From Octopus vulgaris (lineage: Eukaryota): DNA of 64,000 bases. Shown piece by piece: positions 3,172 through 54,670 of this stretch. The position numbers and the translations under genes are program-made. Below the pieces are notes generated by a model, which saw nothing but the letters and a program-made list of their open reading frames with translations, made no database searches and was not told the origin of the DNA. Numbering within the stretch: the stretch's first letter is position 1; every line of letters starts with the position of its first letter. The DNA lies in NCBI GenBank assembly GCA_951406725.2, contig OX597819.1:12090001-12154000 (forward strand), given 5' to 3'.

Positions 3172-3600
3172 CTCTTTACTCTTTCTCTTTTACTCTTTTA
3201 CTTGTTTCAGTTATTTGACTGCGGCCAAGCTGGAGCACTGCCTTTAGTCGAGCAAATCGACCCCAGGACTTATTCTTTGTAAGCCCAGTACTTATTCTAT
3301 CGGTCTCTTTTGCTGAACCGCTAAGTGACGGGGACGTAAACACACCAGCATCGGTTGTCAAGCAATGCCGGGGGGACAAACACAGACACACAAACATATA
3401 CACACACACACTTATAGATATATATACATATATACGACAGGCTTCTTTCAGTTTCCATCTACCAAATTCACTCACAAGGCATTGGTCGGCCCGGGGCTAT
3501 AGCAGAAGACACTTGCCCAAGATGCCACGCAGTGGGACTGAACCCGGAACCATGTGGTTGGTTAGCAAGCTACTTACCACACAGCCACTCCTGCGCCTAT
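3172..3600 (-). mobile_element. tRNA-derived SINE (family A), full length
   Basis: minus strand begins ggcgcaggagtggctgtgtggtaag (A-box) then ggttcagtccc (B-box); internal (TA)/(TG) tract; aaagagt tail; many copies in window. Confidence 0.85.
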
Positions 3601-34542: not shown

Positions 34543-34892
34543 CAGTGAGAGCTTAGAGTAAAGGATTGCTATTTTCATTTTGACTTTGCCTTTCATCCTT
34601 TCGGGGTCGATAAATTAAGTACCAGTTACGCACTGGGGTCGATGTAATCGACTTAATCCGTTTGTCTGTCCTTGTTTAGCCCCTTGTGGGTAATAAAGAA
34701 ATAGGTATATGGTTAAATAGTTGGAGGAGCACACAGTATTTAACGCATGCGCGTTAGTGAATTAACTGTCGTCTGCTCAGTGAAAACTTACAAACATGTC
34801 CGACAACAAACGATGTAAAACTTAACAAGAGAAAGGTAAAGTGTTTTCATAGATTTTTTTCAAACAACCGTATTTGTTAAAACTTTACCAAT

Positions 34893-35296
34893 ATAGGCGC
34901 AGGAGTAGCTGTGTGGTAAGTAGCTTGCTAACCAACCACATGGTTCCGGGTTTAGTCCCACTGCGTGTCATCTAGGTCAAGTGTCTTCTACTATAGCTTC
35001 GGGCCGACCAAAGCCTTGTGAGTGGATTTGGTAGACGGAAACTGAAAAGAAGCCCGTCGTATATATGTATGTATATATATAATATGTTTGTGTGTCTGTG
35101 TTTGTCCCCCTAGCATTGCTTGACAACCGATGCTGGTGTGTTTATGTCCCCGTTACTTAGCGGTTCGGCAAAAGAGACTGATAGAATAAGTACTGGGCTT
35201 ACAAAGAATAAGTCCCGGGGTCGATTTGCTCGACTAAAGGCGGTGCTCCAGCATGGCCGCAGTCAAATGACTGAAACAAGTAAAAGAGTAAAGAGT
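34893..35296 (+). mobile_element. SINE family A, full length
   Basis: A/B boxes; flanking direct repeat aaccgtatttgttaaaacttta (22 bp) at 34866 and 35297. Confidence 0.88.
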
Positions 35297-35553
35297 AACC
35301 GTATTTGTTAAAACTTTAACCAACATACTGAAATAATAATATTATAGATAATGTCTTTCATTTTGTTCCATATTGTTTACTTCTTAACATAAAGTAAAAG
35401 ACAACAGACAAGTCACAAAGAAGATGCTATTTCTTAATACTACTTATATATGAACTTTTACATCATCTCAAAGCTACAATGGTTCAGAAAAAATATACAG
35501 GTTCATCTTATAATTTTCAAAATAACCGTGATATTACCGCGGGTTACTACAAA

Positions 35554-49249: not shown

Positions 49250-49622
49250 CTAGCACTATGACCCAGCAACGCCAGGTCATAGTGCTAGTGCATGCATATA
49301 CAGCTGTGTGCGTGCGCACATACACGCAAGTACTATCCAAATCTCCGACCAATCACATACAGCTAGCTGGCATTCAATTGGCATATCAAGTTTTGGGTAT
49401 TTTGATTGGGTTTTGGATAGAAAATTCACAAAAAAAGTCACTTCTATTGATTTTTTAATGGCTTTGCGGGGTGACTGGGGAAATGTAAAGATGTGCACGA
49501 CCACCCTTGGATGGTTTTGAATGACCATAGAAAGTGCGAGCCCACTAACTGAAAAATTGTGGATTTGTATAAAGGATACACACACACACACAGACATTTT
49601 GCCGTTTATATATATATAGAGA
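49250..49622 (-). mobile_element. Non-autonomous Helitron (second family)
   Basis: minus strand TCTCTATATATATAAAC start, CTAG end, terminal hairpin ctagcactatgacc...ggtcatagtgctag. Confidence 0.7.
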
Positions 49623-50154
49623 TAACTATTGACCCAGCTTGCCAAACATATGTGTAAGTATCAGTAGAAAATACTAGAACCCCATGATTTTTGTGAGTGT
49701 TTTACAGTGTGCCCCATTGATATATTCAAGTTACCAGTAGAAAATACTAGACTGTAGAACTATAGGATCTATGAAAGTGCTTTACACTGTTCTCCATTGA
49801 CATAGGTGCTACTCTAAACCACAGGAAGGTTCAGATTTTAAAGAAGACGACTCCTAATTTGAGGGTGATTCTTTTAAAGTTCAAATTCCATCCCGTACAC
49901 CATTATATATGGTATATATATATCATCATCATCATTTAACGTCCGTTTTCCGTGCTAGCATGGGTTGGACGGTTTCGACCGGGGTCTGGGGAGCTCGGGA
50001 CTGCCCCAGGCTCCAGTCTAGTCTGGCAGTGTTTCTACAGCTGGATGCCCTTCCTAACGCCAACCACTCCGCGAGTGTAGTGGGTGTTTTTTACGTGCCA
50101 CCTGCACAGGTGCCAGAGGGGTCTGGCATCGGCCACGTTTGGATGGTGCTTTTT

Positions 50155-50737
50155 ATGGGGGGGGGCTGCAGAAATATAAGGGAGCACCAGTGGGAGGGAT
50201 GGTTCAGAGGACAGGTACTAGGCAAGTAGAACGTAGGATATCGAGAGAGGGGTAATGCATGGTGAAATAGCGTATTGAAGAGGGGGCTTCAAAGAGTAGA
50301 CACCTATAATGGTGGTGGGGGGTGCAGAAATATAGGGGAGCACCAGTGGGAGGGGTGGTTCAGAGGACAGGTTCTAGGCAAGTAGAACGTAGGATATCGA
50401 GAGAGGGGTAATGCATGGTGAAATAGCGTATTGAAGAGGGGGGTTCAAATAGTAGACACCTATAATGGTGGTGGGGGGTGCAGAAATATAGGGGAGCACC
50501 AGTGGGAGGGGTGGTTCAGAGGACAGGTTCTAGGCAAGTAGAACGTAGGATATCAAGAGAGGGGTAATGCATGGTGAAATAGCGTATTGAAGAGGGGGGT
50601 TCAAAGAGTAGACACCTATAATGGTGGTGGTGGGGGTGCAGAAATATAGGGGAGCACCAGTGGGAGGGGTGGTTCAGAGGACAGGTTCTAGGCAAGTAGA
50701 ACGTAGGATATCGAGAGAGGGGTAATGCATGGTGAAA
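50155..50737. repeat. About 156-bp G-rich tandem repeat x3.7
   Basis: gcagaaatat at 50168, 50324, 50480, 50638. Confidence 0.9.
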
Positions 50738-50739
50738 TG

Positions 50740-50771
<32 letters not shown>

Positions 50772-51261
50772 CTGTGTTTGTCTCCCCATAACTGCCCGAC
50801 AACCGGCGCTGGTGCGTTCACATCCCCATAACTTTGCGGTTCAGCAAAAGAATAAGTACATGGCTTAAAAAATAAGTCCTGGGGGGGTGATTTGTTTGAC
50901 TAAAACCCTTCAAGGTGGTACTTCGGCATGGCCGCAGTCAAATGACTGAAACAAGCAAAAGAATAAAAATATATACTTCAACTGTACAGGTATTTTACCA
51001 ATCGTTTCTATATGATTCATTATATTTTGTTATAAAAATATAATAGGATTTTTAAAACATCAAATGGAGTATGAGGGTCCACCTGAGTAAAATAGGAAAC
51101 AAAGAGGTCTGCAGACAAAAAATGGTTGACAATCACTAATCTAGATTATATGTTGGGCTTTCAGATGAATTTGTTCATTTCTTTTGAGTATTATTTGAAT
51201 TAACAACACAAAAAATATTTTTATCATAATGCTTTATAGGGTTTTTGTATCTCTATTCCTC

Positions 51262-51471
51262 CTCTCTTTACTCTTTCACTTGTTTCAGTCACCCGACTGC
51301 GGCCATGCTGGAGCACCACCTTTAGTCGAGCAAATCGACCCCGGGGCTTATTCCCCGTAAGCCCAGCACTTATTCTATCGGTCTCCCCCGCCGAACCGCC
51401 AAGTGACGGGGACGCAAACACACCAGCATCGGTTGTCAAGCAATGCTAGGAGGACAAACACAGACACACAA

Positions 51472-51522
<51 letters not shown>

Positions 51523-51662
51523 TACGACAGGCCTCTTTCAGTTTCCGTCTACCAAATCCACTCACAAGGCACTGGTCGGACCGGGGCTATAGCAGAAGAC
51601 ACTTACCCAAGATGCCATGCAGTGGGACTGAACATGGAACCATGTGGTTGGTTAGCAAGCTA
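51262..51662 (-). mobile_element. SINE family A, slightly 5'-truncated, with a cluster of sense-strand A>G substitutions
   Basis: colinear with 3172-3600 and 34893-35296; 16 T>C changes on +. Confidence 0.88.
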
Positions 51663-53551
51663 ACTTTTGTTTATCGTTTTTGAAGTTTGAATAAATTTCT
51701 ACCCCCTTTCCAGATATAGATGGAAAATAAGGTCTAAATAAATGAAAAAAGGAAAAGAAATTAGCAAATTCCTCTGACAACCCCATCTGTTGTTTGACTG
51801 ACAGATTGAACTCAGCACTCACAGCCAAACTGCTACACTTAACACTTAATGAACACTTATTTTTACTGTTCTATTGCCCAACAGGATAATTAGGTAAGGA
51901 AAATTAGGAGCTTTGACTGTTTTTTTTTAATGGTTATAGATTTAATATTCTGTTTTTCTTAACTAACAGCCCCAGTATTGGATTCTTTGTGCTCGGTCCA
52001 TGACAATGAAAGTTCTCTGTATTAATTTTCAGTGAAGTGTATAGAATCTGATGTATGTGTATGTAGTAACTATGATTTATAAACCATACATATGTACTCA
52101 TATGAACACAAACACACATGTTTAATTATAATGCCTGATTGAACTTAAAAATGACAAAATTGTCATCCATGACTGTCACTTTGTTAGTCACTGGAGCTGG
52201 TATTTACACTTTTTTAGTTCATAACTAGACAGATTTTTTCTCTTTTTTGTAAGAAAAAACTTTATTTTGAGAAACAGATCTACCTTTAACAAATATCTGA
52301 AACCGGACCAAATTATACACTCTTCCATTGTATATATATAGATTACATAGATTTTCATCTTCTGAATGGAAACACTGATGGCATTAAAATAGCAATAACA
52401 ACAACAACAATAATAACCACAACCACAACAAAAACAACAACAACTTATATTCAAGTTATGTCATTTATCTTCTGCTTGATTTATTGTTGTGTGAAATGTT
52501 CATCAAACATTTTTACTTGGTTGCCATAAAGCAGAGCTGCTAGTGGATACAGTTCCTTATCATAAAGCAATATTACTAGTAGGTATATTGAAAATAAAAA
52601 CGCTATTGCTCTTTTCTGTATATATTATATAATGATGTAACATGGAATCTTTTATTTATTTGATATGTATCCATATATTTATATAAAGAATGAGCTTTCT
52701 TTTATGGCTTTGCAAGATAAATCAGTTTTCTTTGTGTCGATAAACACATCAAAGGAATTGTATGCATGGTCATGTAGTTATCTTTACAGTTTGTAACTTT
52801 TCATACACTGCCTTTATGCGATATCTCCTGCTGATATCAACTGTAATTTGTATTGTCAGTTTTAGGGATTCACCATAAGCAACACTGTTGTATGTATATA
52901 TAGTTCAAATATAGTTGAGTGTTTTCGGTTCAAATTCACAGAAAGCAAACGACGAAGACAGGTGAGGGAAAAACAAGAAGGTATATTAGTTTGACACTTG
53001 GGAAGAATGGAAAAGCCTTTTATGTTTCAAGCCTATACTCTTCAACAGAAAGGGCTGAGAGGGAAAAAAAGGGAAAGAAAAAAAAAAAAAAAAAAACGGA
53101 CGGAAAGAGATGGGAAAGACTTCCTCACCACCCCCATTTCCTCCCATTTTTAAAATTATTATTTTTTTTTGCCAAAAATCGGCATTTTGAAATCCCGCCC
53201 CTTCTTAATTTTTCAATTTATTCCCTAACCGTAACCCTAAAACCCTAACTACAAAAATTTTTGGAAACTTTTTTCATAATAATAATCTCCATATTTTTCC
53301 ACATTTTTTTTTTTAATTGCCCAAAGAACCGCGCAGTGGGACTCAACTGGAAATCAAGTGGTTACAAAGCCAGATTCTTAAACACCCAGCCATGCATGCG
53401 CATGGAAAATATAAACTTCTTTAGAGCTAAATGGTCCAAGACGATGTAACTAAATGTTCTTTCGTTTAGGAACAATGCCAGCAATTTTGAATGATAAAAG
53501 GCGAAGTTGATTGACCATGGCAAGATTTGAATTCAGAATGTACAAGTCTGA

Positions 53552-53787
53552 GGTACTATTTGAGAACAGTGGTCCCGGTGCGCGCACTCGCGTAATCGCG
53601 CATCCGCGCTGGCTAGTCGATCCTACAACGACTACCTAGCAAAGTAAATAAAACAAAATAATTTTACACAAAGTAAATAATTTTTTAAACAAAGTAAATA
53701 ACACACAAAAACACAAAGTAAGGATTGACTAATCATGACTAGCTAGTGCGGATGCGCGCACCGGGACCACTGTTCTCAAGTAGTACC
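53552..53787. mobile_element. MULE-like MITE
   Basis: ggtactatttgagaacagtggtcccggtgcgcgca TIRs; 9-bp TSD caagtctga. Confidence 0.85.
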
Positions 53788-53860
53788 CAAGTCTGAAACA
53801 AATTCTAAAGTTTTTTTGATTTTTTTTTTTGCTCCGACGTTTTAATAGTTTTACTATGAG

Positions 53861-54502: not shown

Positions 54503-54670
54503 CTTAATATATTGCTTCTCCACAATAACTACGCATTGTTAATATCATTCATACACAACTGCTGCTAAATAATTTTATCTCCCGCCAAGACGACTTGGCT
54601 TCTGTCAATGTTTTGTGAGAAACAAAGATGGCAGAGTTATGCGAATTTTGGTGACTCGCAAGTCACGTGG
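54503..54670 (-). promoter_or_regulatory. Promoter and leader exon of ZNF-D
   Basis: GTCACGTGG 54662-54670, AAGATGGC 54625-54632, donor at 54502; predicted intron 54502-47019. Confidence 0.7.

Follow-up and report, generated by a model that had tools for sequence, protein, structure and literature searches.

Clustered A-to-G changes of ADAR type in a duplicated inverted SINE pair of the Octopus vulgaris genome

A-to-I edits of RNA are usually regarded as transient, and the question raised by a locus in the Octopus vulgaris genome is whether such edits can be written into inherited DNA. We analyzed a window of 64,000 nucleotides (assembly GCA_951406725.2, contig OX597819.1, positions 12,090,001 to 12,154,000 of the forward strand; G000:C6:12090001-12154000 in our searches of the 2.80-Gb, 227-contig assembly). 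A first-pass annotation, made from the letters alone, had singled out one SINE copy in this window and proposed that an edited SINE RNA had been retrotransposed. Our analysis supports the part of this proposal in which ADAR-type editing was written into DNA, but the template was most likely a longer fold-back transcript and not the SINE's own RNA, because the SINE sits inside a duplicate of a segment of another chromosome (C2), and an older, inverted SINE in this duplicate shows changes on the same strand of the genome. The copy does not stand alone: the duplication extends to its flanks, and the second SINE also carries changes (Table 1).

Table 1. Features of the duplicated unit and its neighbor, in window coordinates.
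Feature	Position	Strand	Description
Neighboring young element	49922..50738	-	LINE-type 3' end with (ATG)n tail; 156-bp repeat (3.7 units)
Whole duplicated unit	50737..52889	-	2.15 kb; likely retrocopy of unspliced minus-strand RNA
Older SINE, same family, inverted	50737..50967	+	Second hairpin arm; cut off inside its (AT)n microsatellite
Spacer, hairpin loop	50968..51265	.	Differs from the source at 10 positions of mixed type; T>C at 1 of 113 T
Young SINE	51266..51661	-	Lacks the 5' 25 nt; TACTCTT-type repeat tail; 16 sense-strand A>G
Dense cluster, 14 A>G	51277..51415	-	Inside the predicted arm-to-arm duplex
Upstream part of copied RNA	51662..52889	-	1 T>C in 445 T

The young SINE belongs to a very abundant family (a single 21-mer in its unchanged form is matched exactly at 54,573 places), and its sense strand is the minus strand of the window. 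Box-like head motifs were recognized by eye in the sibling copy at 3172-3600, by comparison with the A/B box consensus; an Rfam search over 49500-53500 gave no tRNA match and nothing meaningful. Elsewhere in the window, a sibling SINE at 34877-35320 is bounded on each side by a direct repeat of ~22 bp that is clearly a target-site duplication, and a MITE-like element of ~225 bp with terminal inverted repeats lies at 53564-53788.

Taking the majority letter of the 29 best genome-wide relatives as the reference, 16 of the 86 T positions of the young SINE outside its microsatellite have become C, that is, A>G on the sense strand (51277, 51292-94, 51354-56, 51367, 51386-89, 51400, 51415, 51533, and 51572). 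These are the sites named in the first-pass annotation; at every one of them the window has C where most of the relatives have T. The probability of this excess is 6e-14 at the background T>C rate of 1.37%, which was obtained from 30 ordinary family copies, and 6e-9 at a rate of 3%. The annotation's count of 14 sites within about 140 bp, with about two other mismatches, also holds: the interval 51277-51415 contains 14 such changes and two other differences (51318 and 51346), which are present in 9/29 and 7/29 relatives. Six more differences that are not T>C fall outside this interval (51451, 51580, 51605, 51618, 51634, and 51635), which brings the substitutions besides the 16 T>C to eight outside the microsatellite. 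None of the 20 adenines with a 5' G is changed, as the annotation had also observed. The young SINE is unique in the assembly, where its closest other match is 93% identical, and the edit sets of edited family copies share sites but are not nested; both results speak against the ordinary subfamily that the annotation had offered as one alternative.

The unit that contains this SINE has a paralog on another chromosome, G000:C2:51677229-51678996 (L172). The young SINE is missing there, and the paralog provides the parent locus looked for in a LINE-made retrocopy. Identity to the paralog is 98.9% over the 1.2 kb of 51662-52889 and 93% over 50737-51265. A query of 498 nt, comprising the older SINE and the spacer, was matched as a whole only by this unit and the C2 paralog among the 40 of 6,809 candidates that were scored. 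Where the window carries the young SINE, the paralog has ~3 nt and therefore represents an empty site; relative to it, the insertion lost ~3 nt of target and made no duplication. In the C2 source, the older SINE is full length, inverted, and 300 bp from the site of the young SINE, and the window copy of it stops in the central (AT)n. The spacer and right flank together show 2 T>C in 558 T relative to the source. The spacer differs from the source by ~3%, compared with 1% in the right flank, and contigs of two other sequencing runs (X2 and X3) suggest that the C2 source may be polymorphic across the spacer. No gene was recognized near the C2 source in the open-frame listing.

The older SINE extends the pattern to a second arm. 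Compared with the source it has 11 T>C in 59 T, and an outgroup of 57 relatives (25 of them close) polarizes six of these as derived in the window and five as C>T losses in the source; the idea that all 11 are edits was dropped on this basis. The six derived changes on the plus strand are at 50796, 50797, 50807, 50815, 50819, and 50956, five of them within 24 bp and none after G, and any single relative shares at most two of them. This amounts to 6/54 T changed (P = 5e-8 if the flank rate is taken as background, 7e-4 with a rate of 2%). Across both arms, then, there are 22 A>G changes, all on the minus strand, which is sense for the young SINE and antisense for the older one. The clustered, one-strand A>G pattern of ADAR hyper-editing is therefore found in each arm (16/86 with P = 6e-14 and 6/54 with P = 5e-8). 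Adenines after G are unchanged in both arms (0/29, versus 22/111 of the others; P = 0.008), and depletion of G upstream of the edited site is described as an ADAR signature (PMC5625713).

The minus-strand RNA, with the 22 sites reverted, is predicted to fold back on itself through 199 arm-to-arm pairs that join 51267-51496 with 50741-50967. Within the predicted span, 14/60 adenines of the young SINE are edited versus 2/46 outside it (P = 0.007), and 18 of the 20 edits inside the span fall in predicted A-U pairs across the arms. By this prediction, the ~200-bp duplex contains 20/22 edits, and the flanks have 2/558. The two young-SINE sites outside the span, 51533 and 51572, pair with the head of the older SINE, which is present only at the source: when the source continuation is added, 121/137 head positions pair in the prediction, including both of these, although this support amounts to two changes. 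An internal fold of the SINE was considered as the ADAR substrate and rejected, as it is no better than shuffled sequences (z = -0.52).

At its right end the unit joins GTATGTATATATAG, and both ends lie in (AT)n-like DNA. The end repeats are 9-12 nt of low-complexity AT that are also accounted for by the neighboring element, and a candidate 11-nt target duplication was set aside since it is of such low complexity that it is not provable. The neighboring element (49922-50738) has the same strand as the hairpin RNA and is unedited; its 3' end matches C2 DNA downstream of an RVT_1 frame, and its short end meets (AT)n in three other loci among those inspected. Elements of this kind are dispersed, 98-99% alike on many contigs, form arrays of up to ~10 kb on contig C20, and often end in (AT)n. 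The element was either co-inserted by a template switch, in which case priming would have needed no tail, or it entered the microsatellite at a later time. Microsatellite ends have been linked to RTE priming (PMC6007223). The unit has no poly(A) tail, lost introns, or spliced junction; it is colinear with the source except for the young SINE and ends in (AT)n. It works like a LINE-made processed pseudogene but is not classed as an L1-type one.

Altogether, we consider it probable that the unit at 50737-52889 is a retrocopy of a fold-back RNA that was edited by ADAR before a LINE reverse transcriptase copied it. In this reading, the young SINE would have inserted in inverted orientation 300 bp from the old SINE in one C2 allele, and an outside promoter would have read through both SINEs; the promoter is placed outside because the first 25 nt of the young SINE are missing and the copy takes in 1.2 kb of upstream flank. 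The arms are predicted to have paired over 200-320 bp, and ADAR would then have deaminated adenines on both of them, as the strand, clustering, context, and confinement of the changes suggest. Reverse transcription may have begun in the (AU)n of the old SINE, either at an (AT)n target or when the enzyme switched over from the neighboring LINE-tailed RNA, with inosine read as G. The copy would then have been inherited, and later ordinary changes gathered in it. The source allele with the young SINE is absent from the material searched: the C2 locus of the assembly is empty, and a 227-nt contig in X2 and X3 likewise leaves the unit at 51265.

The changes had been described in the first-pass annotation as apparently fixed in genomic DNA. 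The C letters are indeed written in the assembly, but no contig joining the flank to the edited SINE is among those listed for six other runs (X1, X2, X3, X4, X6, and X8; X1 and X2 read at 76-80%), and no RNA run appears among the runs listed as matches. The 227-nt contig of X2 and X3 follows 51072-51265 and then diverges at 51265, and the alternative letters of X2 at 51130 (G) and 51160 (G) agree with the C2 source; we infer that this contig represents the empty source allele. A triple-edited word at 51282-51317 (36-42 nt) occurs without mismatch at a depth of 600 in X2 and 171 in X3, both presumed to be DNA runs. With a single-locus contig depth of 15.9 in X3, the word depths fit the 17 copies in the assembly, and they indicate that copies of the edited class exist outside this assembly as well.

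The first-pass annotation had also predicted a subpopulation of family copies with sense-strand A>G excess, and such copies exist. In a cluster test of 252 distinct copies, 17 pass for sense A>G (16 plus the young SINE) and none for antisense, in a sample that was enriched by five sense versus three antisense patterns and so is not a frequency; two CpG-type changes pass in one and two copies. Exact pattern counts are 4 copies for the four-in-a-row sense change, 22 for three spaced sense changes, and 17 for GGG in the 3' stem-loop of the SINE, with 0 and 0 for two antisense triple controls, the controls as raw counts. The TTT>CCC change at 51354-56 was dropped as an editing marker, since 6/7 matches are old copies with an inherited variant. 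Among the 22 matches to the spaced pattern, clusters track SINE orientation on either genome strand (15 forward and 7 reverse). We analyzed 20 of these 22, leaving out the young SINE and one twin as well as selected and polymorphic columns, and found T>C at 134/1,311 versus A>G at 10/1,272. The edit rate by 5' neighbor is 0.215 for U, 0.113 for A, 0.044 for C, and 0.046 for G. The sense-strand A>G excess that the annotation had expected across copies is thus present, and its expected 5'-G depletion is seen against all other neighbors together (P = 1e-4) but not against C, as 5' G (14/303) is no lower than 5' C (13/294). At least four extra T>C are present in 11 of the 20 copies. Among edited copies other than the young SINE, 11 share 3-9 sites and have 4-23 private sites each, with edit sets that are not nested.

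Several of these copies have features of their own. L032:1430-1790 carries 31 sense A>G, and its internal (AT)n has become (AC)n, with the flanking (AT)n and the 3' 120 nt of the SINE untouched. L108:780-1620 is a hyper-edited SINE with 14 changes and a flanking direct repeat of at least 37 bp, and L108 and L088 are both full-length edited copies with flanking duplications. The two flanks of another hyper-edited SINE, L074:1330-1850, are inverted repeats of each other. L094, L096, and L099 (on C2, C3, and C5) have different flanks and share GGG in the loop of the 3' stem-loop, an internal deletion, and further private marks; they may be a small lineage from an edited source copy that was still mobile. 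A recurrent deletion of ~40 bp between two short TAGT repeats (L032, L094, L096, and L099) marks a sub-branch of the family and is a deep joint in other runs too. L142, with 10 A>G, was considered as an antisense case and rejected; this copy has diverged, its changes are of mixed type, and it does not pass the cluster test. Inverted neighbors were likewise rejected as a general rule for edited copies (within ~1.5 kb, 6/20 versus 20/89 controls), and mirror-image edits are absent in the five inverted neighbors scored. Because inverted neighbors are no commoner and some copies are full length with flanking duplications, a second route probably exists in which unit SINE RNA is edited by trans pairing or within a longer RNA; this route corresponds to the model of the first-pass annotation.

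Such copies are rare. A single sense change occurs in 724 copies versus 570 for an antisense control, compared with 54,573 unchanged, and 1 of 30 inspected carriers of the single sense change is hyper-edited; together, the 724 copies and the 1/30 suggest tens to about a hundred hyper-edited family copies, on the order of 0.1%. Ordinary copies have no bulk strand bias (T>C 28/2,045, 1.37%; A>G 35/2,072, 1.69%). The route for editing-driven retroelement mutagenesis that the first-pass annotation had envisaged therefore appears real but minor.

Other histories of the locus have to be weighed against a retrocopied fold-back RNA. It is improbable that the edits were written in place, through duplication of a 1.8-kb segment, insertion of the young SINE, editing of a local transcript, and overwriting of the locus with its cDNA by gene conversion. 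This would account for a source without the young SINE, both in the assembly and, as it appears, in X2 and X3, and for the absence of a clear target-site duplication, but it needs three events plus the coincidence of an edited locus in a small interchromosomal duplicate, and 51533 and 51572 are unpartnered in the window copy yet pair with the source continuation. The empty source, the SINE junctions with short shared letters, and the lack of a duplication are also accounted for by a mosaic in which a free SINE RNA formed a duplex in trans with the old SINE, present as antisense in a source transcript, both were edited, and the reverse transcriptase jumped across and back. Trans pairing is itself probable, because most other edited copies are without an inverted neighbor (6/20 versus 20/89 controls). 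However, the enzyme would have had to return to within ~3 nt of its exit on the first template, and we regard this mosaic as very unlikely.

The version of the first-pass annotation, in which the SINE's own edited RNA inserted and the old-SINE changes arose by chance, draws on the full-length edited copies found elsewhere (L032, L108 with its long flanking duplication, and L088). Against it are the old arm, where five of the six derived T>C fall in 24 bp and none follows G (P = 7e-4 at 2%), and the concentration of edits where the arms pair, which leave it the least likely of these explanations. Hardly more likely, and on a par with the mosaic, are explanations without RNA editing: DNA-level adenine deamination, reverse transcriptase error, run slippage, an ordinary subfamily, or an artifact of assembly or polishing. 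The edited locus itself is known from the assembly only, TTT>CCC at 51354-56 is an inherited variant in 6/7 pattern matches, and 5' G is no lower than 5' C in the pooled copies (14/303 and 13/294), all of which such explanations would accommodate. They do not fit changes that are confined to the SINE arms, with the loop and flanks spared, edit sets that are not nested among different copies, clusters that track SINE orientation (15 forward, 7 reverse), or a triple-edited word that is mismatch-free at multi-copy depth in X2 (600) and X3 (171). Had the cDNA been deaminated, the sense strand of the SINE would be expected to show the mirror change; a DNA deaminase acting on an R-loop would also hit the loop and flanks.

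Returning to the retrocopied fold-back RNA, the locus is a natural case in which an unedited paralog can be set beside the two edited arms and flanks that are almost unchanged. It implies that, in an animal that edits heavily, long double-stranded RNA is edited in the germ line and can nevertheless serve as a template for reverse transcription. We hold it about evenly balanced whether germ-line ADAR and LINE machinery form a recurring route from RNA edits to heritable DNA, one that takes in both fold-back transcripts and unit SINE RNAs, with some edited copies seeding lineages (L094, L096, and L099) and the copies together forming a fossil record of germ-line ADAR specificity. With edited copies at perhaps one in a thousand, editing is not the driver of sequence change in this SINE family. 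The value of the locus lies in its near-complete anatomy with an unedited paralog, and its limits are rarity and evidence that comes from the assembly rather than from reads spanning the locus.

Cephalopod transcriptomes are reported to show very high A-to-I editing of repeat-derived double-stranded RNA, with upstream G depleted, and SINEs dominate octopus repeats (PMC5625713, PMC9068888). This hyper-editing is reported at the RNA level, whereas the octopus locus is DNA (PMC5625713, PMC9068888). Our literature search, which covered few subscription papers, returned no report of ADAR-type clusters that are inherited in a cephalopod genome, whether in SINE copies or in retrocopies. LTR elements with G-to-A editing by APOBEC are described from vertebrate genomes, in a screen that, in its available text, covers LTRs only and finds none in 19 invertebrates (PMC4866542, PMC2873906). 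Like the octopus copies, these are inherited retroelement copies with strand-biased clusters of a single change; the APOBEC case differs in that C-to-U occurs on the cDNA, giving G>A on the sense strand, in LTR elements. RNA edits fixed in DNA by reverse transcription, likewise as a rare event, are described in three BLV proviruses with at least 7 ADAR-type A-to-G changes in a 70-bp LTR window (PMC8025556), a case that is viral and somatic and, as presented there, involves no host transcript or SINE pair. The closest parallel comes from human L1 in cultured cells, where 3/235 new processed-pseudogene insertions are reported to have clustered T>C limited to inverted Alus (PMC11702581). That system is an induced L1 in a cell line, with mRNA templates that carry poly(A), whereas the octopus locus is natural, apparently inherited, unspliced, and without poly(A), and ends in a microsatellite. 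The anatomy is nonetheless the same, with clusters restricted to the inverted repeats of the copied RNA.
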